In this document: positions 6,301 to 52,202 of the stretch, piece after piece
Layout: every line of letters begins with the position of its first letter
How positions within the stretch are numbered: the stretch's first letter is position 1
Assembly (NCBI GenBank): GCA_934149275.1
Contig: CAKPEG010000008.1
Location: forward strand, 210 to 64,209
DNA length: 64,000 nt
From: an uncultured Clostridia bacterium
Lineage (GTDB): Bacteria > Bacillota > Clostridia > TANB77 > CAG-508
Direction: 5' to 3'
The notes under the pieces: generated by a model
Seen by the model: only the letters and a program-made list of their open reading frames with translations
The model's database searches: none
What the model was told of the DNA's origin: nothing
Position numbers and translations under genes: made by a program

Positions 6301-8496
6301 ATGAAAAGTGATATGTTAGAAAGAAATATTGATGATGTTATTAAGCTTGCTAAAGAGAAGAATAGAAAAGTTGATGTGAAGAAGATAACTAAAGCATATA
6401 ATTATGCATGTGAAAAGCATGGAGATCAAAAAAGAAGATCTGGTGAGCCTTATATTATTCATCCACTCCAAGTTGCATATACATTAGCTGGATTAGAAAT
6501 GGATACAGATACAATTTGTGCGGCTTTACTACATGATGTCGTTGAAGATACTGATGCAACTAATGAGGATCTTATTAGAGAGTTTGGTGAGTCTGTTGCT
6601 GAGATGGTAGATGGTGTTACTAAACTTGGTAAATTGCAATATACAACTAAAGAAGAGCAACAGGTTGAAGATTATAGAAAAATGTTCCTAGCAATGGGAA
6701 AAGATATTAGAGTTATTTTGATTAAACTTGCTGATAGACTTCATAATATGAGAACTTTGAAGTTTTTGAGTAGAGAAAGACAAATTGCTAATGCGAAGGA
6801 AACAATGGATTTGTATGCTCCTTTGGCTAACCGTTTAGGTATATATTCTTTGAAATGGGAATTAGAAGATTTATCTTTCAAATATTTATATCCAGATGAG
6901 TATCATGAAATTGTTAAAGGTTTGGATAAAAAGAGAGAAGAGAGACTTGCTTTTATTGATAGTATAATGGATGAGATAAGAGTTGAGTTGAAGAATGCTA
7001 AGATAAATGCTGAGGTTACTGGTAGAGCAAAACATATTTATAGTATTTATAGAAAAATGCAAAGAGATAATTCAACATTAGATCAAGTTTATGATTTATT
7101 TGCTCTTAGAATTTTAGTTAATTCTGTTAGAGATTGTTATGCTGCTTTAGGTATTGTTCATGATTTATATAATCCAATGCCTGGTAGATTTAAAGATTAT
7201 ATTTCAGTACCTAAAAAGAACATGTATCAGTCTATACATACAACTTTGATAGGTCCAAATGGTACTCCTTTTGAGGTTCAGATTAGAACTTGGGATATGC
7301 ATAGGGTTGCTGAGTTTGGTATTGCAGCGCATTGGGCTTACAAAGAGCAAAGTTATAAAGGAAAGAAAAAAGCTGTTGTTGTTAAAGATGATAAATTGTC
7401 TTGGCTTCGTGAGACTTTGGAATGGCAAAAAAATACTGAGAATCCTGATGAGTTTTTAAATACTTTAAAGAAAGAATTGTTTGAAGATGAAGTTCACGTG
7501 TTTACTCCAAAGGGTGATATTAAAGTTTTACCTCGTGGTAGTACTCCAATTGATTTAGCTTATGCAATTCATGAGCAAGTTGGACATAGAATGATAGGTG
7601 CTAAAATTAATAGTAAAATGATGCCTATTGTTACAAAACTTCAAAATGGTGATATTGTTGAAATTATTACTTCAGATTCTGCTAAAGGTCCAAGTAGAGA
7701 TTGGCTTAAGTTTGTTAAGAGTAGTGGTGCAAAAACTAAGATTCAACAATGGTTTAAGAAGGCTCAAAGAGAAGAGAACATTGAAAAAGGTAAAGATATT
7801 TTAGAAAAAGATATAAAGAAATTAGGAATGAAGCATAGTGACTTGTTCAAACCTGAATGGGTTCAAATTGCTTTAGATAGATATAAATATAATTCAGTTG
7901 ATGATATGTATGCAAGTATTGGTTTCGGTGCTATTTCAGCTACTAAAATTATTGCAAGATTGCTTGAAGAATATAGAAAAGAACATAAAGAAGAGGATTT
8001 AGAAAAAACTATTTCTGAGCTTGCTAATAAAAAGACTTTGACTAAGCCTTCAAGAACTGGTGTTATCGTTGAGGGGATTGATAACTGCTTAGTTAAGCTT
8101 TCAAAGTGCTGTAATCCATTACCTGGTGATCAGATTGTTGGTTATATCACTAAAGGTAGAGGGGTTTCAGTCCATCGTGCTGATTGTGTTAATGTTAAGG
8201 ATTTGCTTTCTGATGAGGGTAGAATGATTGATGTTTATTGGGCTAATGAGGCTAAGACTACTTATAGTGTTGAGGTTACTGTGTATGCTAATGATAGACA
8301 GGGATTGCTTGCTGATGTTATTAAGGCTATTACGGGTGCTAAGTTTAATATCCTTGGTGTTAATACTAAGACTACTAAGGAGAGGATTGCTATTATTGAT
8401 ATGACTATCGAGCTTGAGAATTTGGAGGAGTTGAAGAAGGTTATTAGGGTGCTTAGGGGTGTTGATAGTGTTTATGATGTAAAAAGAAATAAATAA
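6301..8496 (+). CDS. relA: Bifunctional (p)ppGpp synthetase/hydrolase, long RSH
   Basis: HD hydrolase motif (HDVVEDT). Synthetase motifs (GRAKHIYSIYRKM, MYQSIHTT, EVQIRTWDMH). TGS- and ACT-like C-terminal domains. 731 aa. Confidence 0.9.
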   Translation: MKSDMLERNIDDVIKLAKEKNRKVDVKKITKAYNYACEKHGDQKRRSGEPYIIHPLQVAYTLAGLEMDTDTICAALLHDVVEDTDATNEDLIREFGESVAEMVDGVTKLGKLQYTTKEEQQVEDYRKMFLAMGKDIRVILIKLADRLHNMRTLKFLSRERQIANAKETMDLYAPLANRLGIYSLKWELEDLSFKYLYPDEYHEIVKGLDKKREERLAFIDSIMDEIRVELKNAKINAEVTGRAKHIYSIYRKMQRDNSTLDQVYDLFALRILVNSVRDCYAALGIVHDLYNPMPGRFKDYISVPKKNMYQSIHTTLIGPNGTPFEVQIRTWDMHRVAEFGIAAHWAYKEQSYKGKKKAVVVKDDKLSWLRETLEWQKNTENPDEFLNTLKKELFEDEVHVFTPKGDIKVLPRGSTPIDLAYAIHEQVGHRMIGAKINSKMMPIVTKLQNGDIVEIITSDSAKGPSRDWLKFVKSSGAKTKIQQWFKKAQREENIEKGKDILEKDIKKLGMKHSDLFKPEWVQIALDRYKYNSVDDMYASIGFGAISATKIIARLLEEYRKEHKEEDLEKTISELANKKTLTKPSRTGVIVEGIDNCLVKLSKCCNPLPGDQIVGYITKGRGVSVHRADCVNVKDLLSDEGRMIDVYWANEAKTTYSVEVTVYANDRQGLLADVIKAITGAKFNILGVNTKTTKERIAIIDMTIELENLEELKKVIRVLRGVDSVYDVKRNK

Positions 8497-8499
8497 TGG

Positions 8500-8621
8500 G
8501 TTCGAAAGATAATCATCATTTTGCGTTGTTACATTTCAGTTTTAATTCCTGCGACGTACCTATGTACGCCTCGGAATTTAAAACTTCATGTGCCTAGCAA
8601 AATAATAATTCTATTTCGAAC
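8500..8621. repeat. Long imperfect palindrome LIR-A (122 bp)
   Basis: Ends GTTCGAAAGATAAT.../...AATTCTATTTCGAAC pair. Middle stem is CAGTTTTAATTCC/GGAATTTAAAACT. Apex is GACGTAC-CTAT-GTACGCC. Homologous in ends and apex to 37669-37790. Confidence 0.7.
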
Positions 8622-8694
8622 GGTTTAAGAGTGAAATAATTAATTTATTTCGAATAGCTGAGTTATAAAAATTTACAAATGAGAAGGAGAGAAA

Positions 8695-36454: not shown

Positions 36455-37666
36455 ATGAAAAATTTAGTTGCTCGAAGATATTTAATATTTTCTATGGTTA
36501 TTATTTTAATATTTATGTCATGTATGGTAGGGTTTAATATTTATCAAGATGCTGAGTATAAGGAAGCTTTGAATAAGTATGCATGTGCTGTGGTTGAGAT
36601 GGTTAAGGAAAAGTATCCAGAGGTGAGTGAAGAGGATATTGTTAAGCTTGTTAATGCTGAGAATGTTGAGGGTTCGGATGATGTGCTTGCGGATTATGGA
36701 ATTTCTGGTGATGTATATGTTTTTAAGAGTATGGAACATACTAGAAGAGTTACGGTGATTGGTAATATTGTTATTTTGACTATGTTAGGTGTTTTGTCAT
36801 TAGTTGTGTTTGGCGTGTATACTAGTAAAAGAAAGAGGAAGATTGACGAGTTAGATAGATATATTCAAGATGTTTCTAATAAGATGTATGAGATTGGGAT
36901 TGATAAGGAATCTGAGGACGAGCTTAATAGGTTAAAGGATTCTTTGTATAAAATTACGGTTATGTTGAAAGAAGATTCAGAAAGTAAGAGAAAGCAGAAT
37001 GAGGCAATTTTGGAGTTGGTTTCTGATATTTCTCATCAGTTGAAAACACCGATTACGTCAATTCAGATTTTGCTTGATAATATTTTAGAAAATGAGAATA
37101 TGGATAGTGATACGCGAAGAAAGTTTACATTAGAGATTTTAAGGCAAGTTAAGGGAATGAATTTTTTGATTTTTTCTTTGCTAAAGTTGTCGAAGTTGGA
37201 TGCTTGTGTAGTTGAGTTTGATAATGAGAAGATTTCTGTAAATAAGCTTGTAACAGATATTTTAGCTGATTTGGATGTGCTTATTGAGTTGAAACATCTT
37301 TATGTTCATGTGAATGTTCCAGAGAATGTTCGTTTTGATGGGGATTATAATTGGAATAAAGAAGCGGTTTTGAATATTGTTAAAAATGCAGTTGAATATA
37401 CTCCGGATGGAAAGAATATTTTTATTGGTGCTGAGGAGAATGATTTGTATACTAAGATTGTAATTAGAGATGAAGGAAAGGGGATTGATGAGAAGGATTT
37501 GCCTCATATTTTTGAGAGGTTCTATAAGAGAGATAATTCAGCTGAGGATAGTTTTGGTATTGGTTTAGCACTTTCAAAGTCGATTGTTGAAAAGCAGGAT
37601 GGGTTTGTTAGTGTGGATTCGGAGGTTGGAGTTGGGACTACATTTACGATTAAGTATTTTAAGTAA
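36455..37666 (+). CDS. Sensor histidine kinase
   Basis: Two TM helices flank a loop of about 65 aa. H-box SDISHQLKTP. N/G boxes (NAVEYT, DEGKGI, GIGLAL). Confidence 0.85.
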   Translation: MKNLVARRYLIFSMVIILIFMSCMVGFNIYQDAEYKEALNKYACAVVEMVKEKYPEVSEEDIVKLVNAENVEGSDDVLADYGISGDVYVFKSMEHTRRVTVIGNIVILTMLGVLSLVVFGVYTSKRKRKIDELDRYIQDVSNKMYEIGIDKESEDELNRLKDSLYKITVMLKEDSESKRKQNEAILELVSDISHQLKTPITSIQILLDNILENENMDSDTRRKFTLEILRQVKGMNFLIFSLLKLSKLDACVVEFDNEKISVNKLVTDILADLDVLIELKHLYVHVNVPENVRFDGDYNWNKEAVLNIVKNAVEYTPDGKNIFIGAEENDLYTKIVIRDEGKGIDEKDLPHIFERFYKRDNSAEDSFGIGLALSKSIVEKQDGFVSVDSEVGVGTTFTIKYFK

Positions 37667-37668
37667 GC

Positions 37669-37790
37669 GTTGAAAAATAATTACAATTTTATCTGTGTCA
37701 AAAAGATATCAAAACGCAGTTACGTATACACATACGCTCCTTTGCCTTTTGATATCTTTTTTCCTGGCTAAAATTTAATTCTTTTCCAAC
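37669..37790. repeat. Long imperfect palindrome LIR-B (122 bp)
   Basis: Ends GTTGAAAAATAATT.../...AATTCTTTTCCAAC. A 15-bp perfect middle stem AAAAAGATATCAAAA/TTTTGATATCTTTTT. Apex ACGTAT-ACAC-ATACGCT. Same length and end/apex motifs as LIR-A. Confidence 0.7.
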
Positions 37791-37818
37791 CTCTTGCAGA
37801 TTATATTGAATAAAAAAC

Positions 37819-45227: not shown

Positions 45228-46112
45228 GTGATTGATTTACATATACATACAAAGTATTCAGATGGAACGGATTCAGTAATTGAGGTATTGAGAAAGGCTG
45301 AGAAACTTGGCTTGAAGGCTATTGCTATAACGGACCATGAGAATTGTGACGCCTATAAAGAGATTGCTAAAATTGATGTTGGTAAATATTTTTCTGGAAG
45401 AGTATTGCATGGTATTGAGTTAAAGGCTAGGTATACTGATAGAGTTATTGATGTTCTTGGATATAATATTGATTGTGAGAAGATGGAAAAGTATTTGAAA
45501 GATTGTTATGGTAATGTTACTAGAGATGAAATTCAAGACAGACAGCTTAGAAAATTTTACGAGTATAAAGATGAGTATGGTTTGGTTTTAGACGATATTG
45601 ATAGTTTGAAGTGGGATAAGCATACTGGTTGGGCAAGTATTGTTTTTTATGATGAGTTGAAGAAACATGAGGAGAATAAAGCTAAGGTTCCAGCAGATAT
45701 GTGGGACAGTTTTACGGTGTTTAAGAGAAATTATTATCATGGTAAGGGTAAGCCTTTTTATGTAGATAATTCTGTCGATTATCCATCTTTGGAGAAGATT
45801 ATTGAGATTATTCATAAATCTGGAGGTTTGGCTTTTGTTGCGCATATATATGAGTATGCATGGATTGACGATAAAATTGCTGAACTGGAGAAGATTACAG
45901 ATGGTTATGATATTGATGGAATTGAGTGCTATCATAGTATATTTAGTCTTGAGCATATTGAATTGGTAAAGAAATTTTGCAAGAGTAGAGGTTTGCTTAT
46001 GAGTGGTGGTAGTGATTATCATGGTTTGCATAAGCCTGATATTGAAATTGGGTCTGGTAAAGGACAGTTGTGTATACCGGATGAGATTTATGAGAGAATT
46101 GTAGAAAAATAA
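45228..46112 (+). CDS. PHP-domain phosphoesterase (TrpH/YciV-like)
   Basis: IDLHIHTKYSDGT and ITDHEN motifs. C-terminal GGSDYHG. GTG start. Confidence 0.75.
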   Translation: MIDLHIHTKYSDGTDSVIEVLRKAEKLGLKAIAITDHENCDAYKEIAKIDVGKYFSGRVLHGIELKARYTDRVIDVLGYNIDCEKMEKYLKDCYGNVTRDEIQDRQLRKFYEYKDEYGLVLDDIDSLKWDKHTGWASIVFYDELKKHEENKAKVPADMWDSFTVFKRNYYHGKGKPFYVDNSVDYPSLEKIIEIIHKSGGLAFVAHIYEYAWIDDKIAELEKITDGYDIDGIECYHSIFSLEHIELVKKFCKSRGLLMSGGSDYHGLHKPDIEIGSGKGQLCIPDEIYERIVEK

Positions 46113-46113
46113 T

Positions 46114-46160
46114 AAAAGATACAATAGCTTTTTTAGTTATTGTATCTTTTATTATTTTTT
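46114..46160 (+). terminator. Intrinsic terminator
   Basis: AAAAGATACAATA/TATTGTATCTTTT stem followed by a T-rich run. Confidence 0.75.
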
Positions 46161-51985: not shown

Positions 51986-51997
51986 ATTAACAATTAT

Positions 51998-52166
51998 GTC
52001 AGAAATATAAAAATAAATTTTATTTTGGCTCGTTTCGTGGTTTAGAAATTCTAAGAAAAATCAATCAGCGCCCTCAATCCTGTGAGATTCCCTAATTGAT
52101 TTTTCTAAGATTTTCTACTACCATCTCTCACGTCGCAATCATAAATTTTATTTTTATATTTCTGAC
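51998..52166. repeat. Long imperfect palindrome LIR-C (169 bp)
   Basis: A 20-bp perfect outer stem GTCAGAAATATAAAAATAAA/TTTATTTTTATATTTCTGAC. Inner stem CTAAGAAAAATCAATCAG/CTAATTGATTTTTCTAAG with two mismatches. Ends resemble LIR-A/B. Confidence 0.65.
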
Positions 52167-52202
52167 GTAAAGGATAATGAAATAAGTAAAAAGGAGTAAA
52201 GT

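Follow-up and report, generated by a model that had tools for sequence, protein, structure and literature searches.

The window analyzed here, a stretch of DNA of 64,000 nt from an uncultured Clostridia bacterium of the gut (genome 1.63 Mb, completeness 94%), carries long hairpins in the spacers between co-directional genes, and the question arises what kind of element they are and on which strand their fold is kept. An initial annotation, made from the letters of the window, had proposed a family with three members, A, B and C, in which A and B were 122-nt imperfect palindromes (8500-8621 and 37669-37790), and these coordinates were confirmed for both. The common ends ascribed to A and B are present (left, GTTCGAAAGATAAT / GTTGAAAAATAAT; right, AATTCTATTTCGAAC / AATTCTTTTCCAAC), as is the apical module ACGTAy-N4-rTACGC, and the middle stems of the two copies are indeed unrelated in sequence and each self-complementary. 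There is no adjacent transposase, reverse transcriptase or Cas gene, as had also been stated. The flanking genes code for RelA, with HD_4, RelA_SpoT, TGS and ACT domains (Pfam), and a hydrolase of the metallo-beta-lactamase fold (MBL) in the case of A, or for a histidine kinase with HisKA and HATPase_c domains and an ABC ATPase in the case of B.

Table 1. Coordinates in the window of the hairpins A, B and C, of their conserved parts and of the adjoining stop codons.
Feature	Position	Strand	Description
Copy A of the hairpin repeat	8496..8626	(-), functional orientation	Spacer between relA/spoT and the MBL-fold hydrolase gene
Copy B, B-type sub-lineage of the same family as A	37664..37796	(-)	Spacer between the histidine kinase gene and the ABC-transporter ATPase gene
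relA stop codon TAA	8494..8496	(+)	ORF 6301-8496; base of hairpin A 3 nt further on
Histidine kinase stop codon TAA	37664..37666	(+)	ORF 36455-37666; hairpin B 2 nt further on
Apical module of A	8548..8574	(-)	Plus strand ACGTAC/GTACGC, 6-7 bp helix around a 4-nt loop, as read from the sequence; minus-strand flanks CCGAGG...GUCGCAGG
Apical module of B	37716..37743	(-)	Plus strand GCAGTTACGTAT-ACAC-ATACGCTCC
Conserved internal-loop box of A	8523..8532	(-)	Plus strand GCGTTGTTAC; 3' side of the minus strand, ..GUAACAACGC; almost invariant AAC..G columns (alignments A3 and A4)
Internal-loop partner box of A	8590..8600	(-)	Plus strand GTGCCTAGCAA; 5' side of the minus strand, UUGCUAGGCAC; almost invariant C.AGGC columns
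Partial repeat of the plus-strand 3' arm of A	8633..8657		GAAATAATTAATTTATTTCGAATAG, compared with AATAATAATTCTATTTCGAAC; in the tail between hairpin A and the MBL ribosome-binding site
Element C	51986..52178	not assigned	193-nt hairpin, first base directly after the accB stop codon

Folding as RNA yielded -34.9 kcal/mol (z -4.6) for the plus strand and -49.1 kcal/mol (z -8.7) for the minus strand of A, and -32.9 kcal/mol (z -7.0) and -44.5 kcal/mol (z -8.2), respectively, for the two strands of B, and not one of 200 shuffled sequences reached the fold energy of either copy. The covariance model of the family, R1, gave 90.7 bits (E 3e-22) on the minus strand of A versus 36.3 bits on its plus strand, and 49.6 bits (E 1.2e-10) on the minus strand of B, both copies being aligned at full length (model positions 1-129). 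We use the term R strand for the strand on which the fold is maintained, which for A and B is the minus strand of the window. When isolated mismatches flanked by Watson-Crick pairs were counted, helix-internal wobbles favored the R strand by 17:4 in this genome and by 111 versus 15 across phyla (p 3e-19; 64 versus 6 elements), the G.U columns of the apex being partly set by the search pattern with which the cross-phylum sample was gathered. This count replaced an earlier one with a symmetric arm alignment, in which the ratios had been weak (412:310 overall, 29:45 in this genome) because forced loop pairs were included. The suggestion of the initial annotation that the minus strand is the folded one is therefore borne out by fold energies, model scores and wobbles alike. 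It is the R-strand fold that is maintained, and in the common orientation this strand lies opposite the coding strand of the gene upstream (relA for A, the histidine kinase gene for B).

All copies have in common, on the minus strand, the apex CCGGAGGCGUAC-N4-GUACGUUGAGGA and an internal-loop box. By model R1 the family is defined as a rod-like hairpin of ~125 nt with the apex GCGUAY-N4-RUACGU and the internal loop YWAGGC / AACRMR on one strand, and both features are found in A and B. Over 110 copies, 85.7% of the cells are paired, versus 56.7% in shuffled sequences and ~40% with slid partners. Double-sided changes occur at 47 of the 50 pairs, with 1623 compensatory cells in the 110 copies, and all helices covary, which places the compensatory nature of the stems, first proposed for A and B, far above both controls. 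Conservation resides in the columns of the apex and the internal loop, and columns 80-109 of alignment A4, which form the apex, are paired to 99.5%. The ends of the element vary between copies and the base pairs at its foot run through all four pair types, the apex being invariant. The G+C content of the copies follows that of the host, from 0.27 to 0.72.

Searches with nhmmer and the covariance model revealed ~25 copies in this genome, A and B among them, and homologous copies were matched with E values as low as 1e-29. They fall into a number of sub-lineages (A-type, B-type and others) that have diverged from one another, copies 80-87% identical to B being present at further sites in this genome and in relatives. 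Divergence among the copies of one genome greatly exceeds that of a typical recent burst of MITEs or REPINs, and the descent from one master sequence that had been proposed for A and B is too simple a picture for several diverged sub-lineages and a family that spans phyla. Within the genus the copy number ranges from 0 to 45, five species having none. Within the phylum, matches were obtained in 33 of 301 sampled genomes (28 of 222 genera). The element is multi-copy in Planctomycetota and Synergistota, too, among other groups. Between 2 and at least 141 copies per genome were counted in Carboxydocellales, Planctomycetales, Muiribacteriota, Geobacteraceae, Nitrospira, Pyramidobacter, Patescibacteria, Polyangiaceae, Acidobacteriota and Rokubacteria. 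Copies often occur in tandem arrays or as truncated units. The distribution of the family is thus very wide yet patchy.

One end of the element is fixed with respect to genes. The upstream gene is co-oriented at 56 of 66 loci, and in ~33 of them its stop codon lies 57-63 nt from the apex. It is the 3' end of the R strand that adjoins the gene boundary. For most copies the adjoining gene is encoded on the opposite strand and the boundary is its stop codon; where the gene lies on the R strand itself, which is rarer, the boundary is its ribosome-binding site or an rRNA 5' end. In this genome seven copies have the opposite orientation and lie 0-35 nt upstream of a ribosome-binding site, and for about one third of the copies, including those in the rRNA operon and the S10 operon, the R strand is within sense transcripts. 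Anchored sites are enriched in TAA stop codons (38 of 47 versus a background of 55%, p 2e-4). Highly expressed genes are found among the neighbors, with copies at rpsJ|rplC, rplW|rplB, rpsG|fusA and in the 23S-5S spacer. The solitary copies of copy-poor genomes, at fabG|fabF, recF|gyrB and rpsG|fusA, were considered as possible masters and rejected as such, their sites being spacers between housekeeping genes. With a split of 11:11, the orientation of the copies shows no dependence on the replication strand, and targeting of the replication strand in the manner of IS200/IS605 was rejected on this ground.

Comparison of orthologous sites showed that close relatives differ in the presence of copies. 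The relA|MBL spacer measures 8-17 nt in most relatives, copy-rich ones included, and is filled only in G000, G020, G006, G014, G017 and G018; from the relatives with an empty site the stretch 8497-8676 is absent as a whole. Similarly, the kinase|ABC site of B is empty in most genomes of the genus and otherwise rearranged or decayed in relatives. At a further site, C1:68923, copies are present in G020 and G006, with a flank identity of 97-99%, and none in the genome studied here, and the outer stems of these two copies differ. In G014 a copy has decayed, and at rodA|dus this genome has lost the core and one arm, a solo arm remaining. The comparison of G020 with this genome at rodA|dus had suggested local target DNA as the template of the outer arm, an idea that was rejected because comparison with an outgroup showed the 24-nt arm here to be the remnant of a deletion. 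Possible target-site duplications were TTAGA at one junction and TAA at another, and none was seen at the remaining junctions. Empty orthologous sites in the majority of relatives show that copies of this repeated DNA are acquired, duplicated in tandem, rearranged and lost again over the time in which species of one genus diverge. Presence or absence in close relatives, the fixed end anchored at gene boundaries and the wide, patchy range are defining properties that go beyond those given in the initial annotation.

Neither a described RNA family nor a partner enzyme was recovered. Rfam 15 gave no match in the window at the gathering threshold and only generic hairpin or miRNA noise for A and B at E values up to 10. 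Among 19 loci of other phyla there were three matches with gathering scores, none of which is the element itself: two are tRNAs and the third is a cobalamin riboswitch that spans the copy at locus L057, an insertion within this riboswitch. The best match to RAYT transposases (Y1_Tnp, PF01797) in this genome, with 16.5 bits (E 0.008), was under the 23-bit cut-off. Clustering of the neighboring proteins of 116 loci revealed no recurrent mobility family, housekeeping families alone being recurrent, nor did a transposase-like ORF recur within 2.5 kb at these loci, and no parent IS was found for the A/B family. A reverse transcriptase was tried as the partner and dropped, the association being weak (11 of 14 copy-rich versus 3 of 8 copy-poor genomes, p 0.08); a diversity-generating retroelement (DGR) accounts for the reverse transcriptase of this genome. 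A matching description was likewise not found in the searched repeat literature (REP/MITE, stop-codon repeats, Chunjie). Given that there are many copies, that the stem differences are compensatory and that neither Rfam nor the searched papers supplied a described family that matches, the view that A and B represent a structured family of their own stands.

Taken together, we consider it probable (roughly 0.6) that A and B represent a palindromic repeat of ~125 nt that is non-autonomous, widespread and uncatalogued, a gene-end hairpin that can be grouped broadly with REP/REPIN, ERIC or MITE sequences. REP units are 20-40 nt long, have a conserved GTAG or CGTC head, are accompanied by a RAYT gene and occur in hundreds of near-identical copies. 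The gene-end hairpin resembles the REP/BIME/REPIN sequences of Proteobacteria with their RAYT (TnpA-REP, Y1 HUH) in being an interspersed extragenic palindrome that forms hairpins in single strands, often lies near stop codons, is co-transcribed with its neighbors, occurs in clusters or tandems and keeps a structure for recognition by a protein, and a REPIN is also a hairpin of ~100 nt. However, the conserved sequence of REPs, with its GTAG/CGTC head, is located in the arms and here in the apex and internal loop, the ends being variable; moreover, there is no RAYT above the cut-off, and the copies are diverged, distributed across phyla and anchored to genes by one end. ERIC or IRU sequences (127 bp), which have their own consensus and are confined to Enterobacteria and Vibrio, are likewise imperfect palindromes of ~125 nt with a conserved center and indels, at transcribed intergenic or operon sites and with no known transposase. 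No sequence relation to them was seen in a comparison by size and kind that draws on their description only, and to our knowledge neither anchoring at gene ends nor a fold of the antisense strand has been described for ERIC. MITEs possess terminal inverted repeats that match a parent IS and produce defined target-site duplications. Like the gene-end hairpin, MITEs such as Correia/NEMIS, RUP and Chunjie are short and non-autonomous, insert into intergenic or operon sites, differ in presence between strains and can fold as RNA, but here neither a parent IS nor a reliable duplication was found. Chunjie elements measure 178-235 bp and have TIRs and direct repeats (PMC10969869).

How such a repeat might spread can be sketched from the conserved features. 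The element would propagate via, or be acted on as, a putative single-stranded R strand, either ssDNA or RNA, and this strand would fold into a rod. Two G.U(T) pairs, a C-C/G-G clamp and probably a tandem G.A belong to its predicted apex, a 7-bp helix, and the docking site of a putative trans-acting protein may be formed jointly by this apex and the asymmetric loop (YWAGGC / AACRMR). Such an apex-reading protein might install or maintain the copies at gene ends. The relA-MBL and kinase-ABC transcripts carry the element in the weaker-folding sense orientation and probably as a tolerated passenger; any role of the sense orientation would at most be that of a 3' stabilizer or of a brake on terminating ribosomes. 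Also, conserved wobbles and loop motifs are equally expected of a functional RNA, which counts against a mobile element. A more specific proposal, which we put forward tentatively and hold to be rather less probable than the general one, is a new class of mobile elements whose homing to gene boundaries would require no classical transposase, in which an enzyme recognizes the apex of the R-strand hairpin (ssDNA or RNA) and the 3' end is set precisely at a stop codon, a ribosome-binding site or the end of an RNA gene. The enzyme would then be either widely available or still to be found, the other end would be ragged (tails, partial copies of arms, tandem units), as in target-primed or template-switching copying, and outer stems would turn over as units, compare G020 and G006 at one site.

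Selection for a benefit to the host would offer another explanation for the placement of the hairpins, namely a cis-acting RNA element of the sense transcript that protects against 3' exonucleases, slows ribosomes or provides a site for RNase III between cistrons. Copies inside operons, near rpsJ|rplC, rplW|rplB, rpsG|fusA and 23S-5S, their exact position at stop codons and the sense-strand hairpins of A and B, which are still significant (z -4.6 and -7.0), are in agreement with this explanation, as are REPs located up to 15 nt from a stop codon, which, in the passage of PMC12306157 that cites Liang et al. (2015), stall ribosomes and lower translation. We nevertheless think it unlikely, as the fold, judged by wobbles and covariance model, is kept on the antisense strand of the commonly oriented copies, the orthologous sites of most relatives function without the element, five species of the genus have no copy, copies decay (G014) or get deleted (rodA|dus in this genome), and the neighbor clustering at 116 loci shows no tie to any gene function. 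Transcription of the R strand from the spacer toward the 3' end of the upstream gene would account for the strand preference, with the hairpin as the body of an antisense sRNA or as a terminator that shields from antisense transcription. This agrees with the location of the fold, of the conserved G.U pairs and of the probable tandem G.A on the R strand, and also with the enrichment of TAA and a T-rich sequence after the R hairpin in AT-rich genomes (0.42 versus 0.29). This T-richness, however, disappears at mid and high G+C, convincing promoters upstream of the R strand were not seen at A or B, no terminator-like site or U-tract was present on either strand there, the R strand of about one in three copies of this genome is part of sense transcripts, and tandem arrays and truncated units would be odd for genes. 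An antisense RNA gene or insulator is therefore improbable in our judgment, and its variant as an antisense terminator was rejected, since any U-richness was no greater than expected from AT-rich coding DNA and neither promoters nor terminators were called.

Integron attC sites have RYYYAAC...GTTRRRY boxes at their base and a variable apex, require IntI and flank mobile cassettes. As imperfect palindromes of 57-141 nt directly after ORFs, in which conservation is limited to the structure and some motifs and in which the antisense strand matters, they (e.g., VCRs) bear a resemblance to A and B that extends to the size class (~125 nt for VCR-type attC), to stems of variable sequence and conserved structure, to the fold on the strand antisense to the ORF and to elements in adjacent arrays. 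Nonetheless, it is very improbable that A and B are attC-like sites of a site-specific recombinase between exchangeable genes. Here the apex and internal loop carry the conserved sequence in place of basal R''/R' boxes, the base varies and the ends differ between copies, and in A and B the order of the boxes is inverted, with GTT at the start and AAC at the end. The integron integrase profile TIGR02249 was above the cut-off in none of 22 genomes of the genus, generic tyrosine recombinases reaching ~73 bits against a cut-off of 265 bits, and the flanks are housekeeping genes that are still adjacent where the site is empty, not mobile cassettes. AT-rich intergenic DNA yields many hairpins by chance, but the shuffled controls (0 of 200), homologous copies with E values down to 1e-29 and the absence at A and B of the U-tract that directly follows the G+C-rich stem of an intrinsic terminator leave practically no room for unrelated chance hairpins or ordinary terminators.

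If the reading of A and B as gene-end hairpins is right, a single structured element with a motif conserved between phyla would sit at gene ends in at least 10 sampled groups of many phyla, from gut Clostridia to Planctomycetota and the ultra-small Patescibacteria; one genome has more than 140 copies, yet neither Rfam nor the repeat literature searched contains the family. As hairpins within operons for ribosomal proteins, rRNA, fatty-acid synthesis (fab) and the stringent response, the copies probably influence mRNA ends and translation termination. They also break assemblies and create tandem arrays, and in annotation they may be mistaken for sRNAs, terminators or parts of riboswitches, one of them sitting in a cobalamin riboswitch.

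The three-member family of the initial annotation holds for A and B and has to be given up for C. Although C folds well (-64.1 and -68.0 kcal/mol), it was not matched by the family HMM, scored only 15.8 bits (E 0.4) with the covariance model and had no second copy in this genome. It is an insertion common to G006, G020 and G014 only, with additional copies in G014, and matches restricted to its apex occur in G011, G015 and G021. The conserved apex of C and its relatives elsewhere differs from that of the A/B family, and C is the same kind of hairpin from a separate repeat family.

Of the three long hairpins that the initial annotation had recognised in the window, A and B matched their description in sequence, and each folded as one long imperfect hairpin. 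Minimum free energies on the plus strand were -34.9 kcal/mol (z -4.6) for A and -32.9 kcal/mol (z -7.0) for B; on the minus strand they amounted to -49.1 (z -8.7) and -44.5 kcal/mol (z -8.2), respectively, and none of 200 shuffles was as stable. The pairwise alignment displayed the common ends and the apical ACGTAy-N4-rTACGC module that had been described, as well as inner stems that are indeed unrelated in sequence between A and B and are each self-complementary.

The two hairpins belong to a family of structured non-coding repeats that is mobile and present across phyla. Searches with BLAST and nhmmer revealed about 20 related copies in the assembly of the same genome (1.63 Mb, 28.9% G+C, 49 contigs), and R1, a covariance model built from 32 copies in minus-strand orientation, detected 25 distinct ones there. 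Within the genus, copies per genome range from 0 (five genomes) to 45, and an even sample of the phylum gave matches in 33 of 301 genomes and 28 of 222 genera. With one genome per species, the exact apex pattern was found at more than 116 loci among the matches listed, the chance expectation for its 17 fixed bases being about 70 loci by our own arithmetic; nearly all listed matches cap a roughly 125-nt hairpin of the same architecture, and many genomes carry several. The hosts comprise many gut Clostridia, Peptococcaceae, Carboxydocellales, Negativicutes and Syntrophomonas, and furthermore Desulfobacterales, Geobacteraceae, Polyangiaceae, Nitrospira, Planctomycetota, Omnitrophota, Muiribacteriota, Rokubacteria, Acidobacteriota, Synergistota and Patescibacteria. 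R1 identified 110 copies in 100 of the listed loci, and their G+C content (0.27 to 0.72) tracks that of the host, which argues for resident copies and against contamination. Whole-genome counts, which are lower bounds obtained with a model trained on Clostridia, reached at least 141 in Carboxydocellales, 27 in Muiribacteriota, 25 in Planctomycetales, 19 in Pyramidobacter, 16 in Geobacteraceae, 15 in Nitrospira, 7 in Patescibacteria, 6 in Polyangiaceae, 3 in Acidobacteriota and 2 in Rokubacteria.

On the strand on which the fold is kept (R strand; the minus strand of the window for A and B), the element consists, from its base upwards, of an outer helix (about 25 bp), an asymmetric internal loop in which 5'-YWAGGC and AACRMR-3' are nearly invariant, a variable inner helix, A/U-rich towards its top, a C-C/G-G clamp followed by purines able to form tandem G.A, and an apical helix of 7 bp (GCGUAC/GUACGU; G.U or R.U at the two lowest pairs) with a 4-nt loop of free sequence. 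In the alignment of the 110 copies, which was fitted to R1 and whose apex columns owe part of their conservation to the search pattern, standard pairs make up 85.7% of cells, compared to 56.7% with shuffled partners (none of 500 shuffles reached the observed value) and 36-42% with partners slid by 1-3 columns. Two-sided changes occur in 47 of 50 pairs, with 1623 compensatory cells, and in the three variable helices, which are unaffected by the search-pattern bias, all four Watson-Crick types are encountered at every pair. Covariation above both controls bears out the earlier view that the stem differences are compensatory.

The suggestion that the minus strand is the folded one was likewise upheld, by the lower minus-strand energies of A and B, by R1 scores for A of 90.7 bits on the minus strand versus 36.3 on the plus strand (B, 49.6 bits), and by the distribution of wobble pairs. 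By minimum free energy, the R strand is the more stable one in nearly every cross-phylum copy, the margin often amounting to 10-40 kcal/mol, and in the own genome this holds for 15 of 22 copies. A first strand-neutral arm alignment, blurred by forced loop pairs, had given wobbles of 412:310 (own genome, 29:45). When only isolated mismatches with two Watson-Crick pairs on each side were counted and the apex was left out, wobbles fell on the R strand at 111:15 across phyla (p = 3e-19; 64 elements versus 6) and at 17:4 in the own genome. Recent substitutions in copy A between near-identical genomes (L118-L120) include plus-strand C-to-T changes that generate plus-strand wobbles, which argues weakly, given the few events, against mutation pressure as the source of the long-term R-strand excess.

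The element has one end fixed at gene boundaries, and it maintains its fold on the strand that is antisense to the gene usually found upstream. Eight own-genome copies, including A (3 nt) and B (2 nt), begin 0-6 nt past the stop codon of the gene reading towards them, to which the R strand is antisense. Seven lie in the opposite orientation, with 0-35 nt between the R-strand 3' end and a ribosome-binding site downstream of it; among them are copies in the rpsJ-rplC and rplW-rplB spacers, upstream of ychF, mutS and rarA, and in the 23S-5S spacer. Two own-genome copies come directly after T-box terminators. Orientation bears no relation to the replication strand in the own genome (11:11; local GC skew). 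Across phyla, 56 of 66 loci have the anchored-side gene in co-orientation (p = 7e-9), and in about 33 its stop codon is situated 57-63 nt from the apex; among the 10 loci with this gene on the opposite strand, 5 have its start at a distance of 70-85 nt from the apex. No anchoring of the opposite end was detected in the cross-phylum loci (distances 67-340 nt), and therefore it is always the same physical end that is turned towards the gene boundary. TAA accounts for 38 of the 47 anchored stop codons, as against 55% in the same loci (p = 2e-4).

Locations of hairpin repeats and neighbouring features (plain numbers, window; C1 to C7, contigs of the own genome; L057, locus from an uncultured delta proteobacterium MAG)
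Location	Feature	Flanks or context	Remarks
8500-8621	copy A	relA/spoT and MBL-fold hydrolase	
37669-37790	copy B	histidine kinase and ABC ATPase	
46105-46159	25-bp near-perfect A/T-rich hairpin	between two plus-strand genes	96% complementary, 5-nt loop
51986-52178	C, 193-nt hairpin	accB and fabZ	first base directly after accB stop codon
C1:68923	site of copies in G020 and G006		no element in own genome
C2:16150, C7:13744, C2:101790	relatives of ~165-nt repeat		79-83% identity
C4:74-202	copy	23S-5S rRNA spacer	R strand in rRNA transcript, end 14 nt before 5S
C4:69200-69365	two more tandem ~98-nt units	after copy C4:69370	each unit: element's last 25 nt + ~70 nt other sequence
C5:95-15892	340-aa reverse transcriptase, Avd-like four-helix-bundle ORF (124 aa), small ORF	outside window	adjoins 4655-aa surface-type protein
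C6:40958-41323	three tandem A-type units	after T-box terminator	one unit there in G020 and G006
C6:53283-53413	one unit	after T-box terminator, between T-box leader and regulated gene	
L057:5477-5778	cobalamin riboswitch match		302 nt; model 189 positions
L057:5601-5726	hairpin copy	within riboswitch match	same strand

The complete genome G221 holds identical-scoring copies in pairs at four loci, which may be rRNA operons too. At L057, judging from the over-long riboswitch match, the repeat appears to have been inserted within the riboswitch.

In most genomes of the genus, copy-rich ones included, nothing but the stop codon, the ribosome-binding site and the ATG makes up the relA-MBL spacer, which is then 8-17 nt long (46-53 nt in two genomes). 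The element is present there in the own genome (G000), G020 and G006, with 98% identical flanks, and, with a decayed apex, in G014; G017 also has one, with the A-type apex and box on different stems, and G018 has three tandem copies. These comparisons show the element at this site to have been gained inside a sub-lineage. At site B, G000 and G020 carry the element, and G004 and G002 are empty; G006 has kept only the first 39 nt and is rearranged beyond, and the G014 copy is decayed. The kinase-ABC spacer of G017 (L154) holds a 1-kb insertion with an ORF where B would be. At C1:68923, one copy is present in G020 and two in G006 (flanks 97-99% identical); the inner stems of the copies from the two genomes share about 90% identity, and their outer stems are completely different and self-complementary. 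Three different sub-lineages occupy one position directly after the stop codon in the rodA-dus spacer of different species, and in the own genome only a 24-nt plus-strand 5' arm is left there, core and other arm being lost. Tandem arrays are common, and so are units with one end truncated; A-type and B-type copies of 80-94% identity occur at other sites and in other species.

Members of one sub-lineage (L186, L196, L122, L204 and L212 from G020, G006, G017, G004 and G021) carry a conserved tail, CTGATGAC (variants CTAATGAC and CTGGTGAC), directly past the hairpin's plus-strand 3' end (..TTAAC, then CTGATGAC), which suggests a mobile unit that extends past the palindrome by a few bases on its unanchored side. 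Adjoining the rodA-dus element in G020 and G006 (L185/L195/L199/L201) is a different, G+C-richer repeat of about 165 nt that reads ..GCCGCGCAGCGACCAAATGAACGAAG.. and has relatives in the own genome. A separate repeat in L189 and L192 is present at about 30 own-genome sites.

No Rfam family matched the element, whether in the window, in A and B or in 19 cross-phylum loci, and no description of the element was found in the literature by motif strings or topic; Chunjie and the elements of a 2024 MITE review are different by description. No RAYT/Y1 transposase was found in the own genome, no integron integrase in 22 genomes, no recurrent protein family next to copies and no mobility gene near solitary ones. 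The presence of a reverse transcriptase tracks copy number weakly; for this reason, and because it belongs to a diversity-generating retroelement, the own-genome enzyme was rejected as a partner. That retroelement (C5:95-15892), as read from ORF translations, is unrelated to the hairpin repeats. Neither A nor B showed a promoter or terminator signal, and a U-tract after the hairpin is not a general feature. We infer that the element, as single-stranded RNA or ssDNA, would be recognised at apex and internal loop by a putative trans-acting protein. Its one precise and one ragged junction would fit, speculatively, a primed-copy or template-switch mechanism. Presence in mRNAs would be mostly tolerated; for REPs located within 15 nt of a stop codon, ribosome stalling has been reported (PMC12306157), and this is a plausible side effect here.

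The third long hairpin of the window, C, had been grouped with A and B, an assignment that did not hold. It was missed by the HMM and scored 15.8 bits (E = 0.4) with R1; no second copy was found in the own genome, and C is an insertion common only to this genome, G006, G020 and G014, the last with further C copies. Since both models miss it, it has no second copy and its own relatives are elsewhere, C is a second, stop-codon-anchored hairpin-repeat family on the same plan. Matches to C in elements of G011, G015 and G021 extend over 28-31 nt of the apex only, and this apex of 30 nt (AGCGCCCTCAATCCTGTGAGATTCCCTAATTG) recurs there on other stems. A minus-strand UUGAGG motif is common to C and the family of A and B. 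The short A/T-rich hairpin at 46105-46159 is probably an ordinary terminator-like structure.
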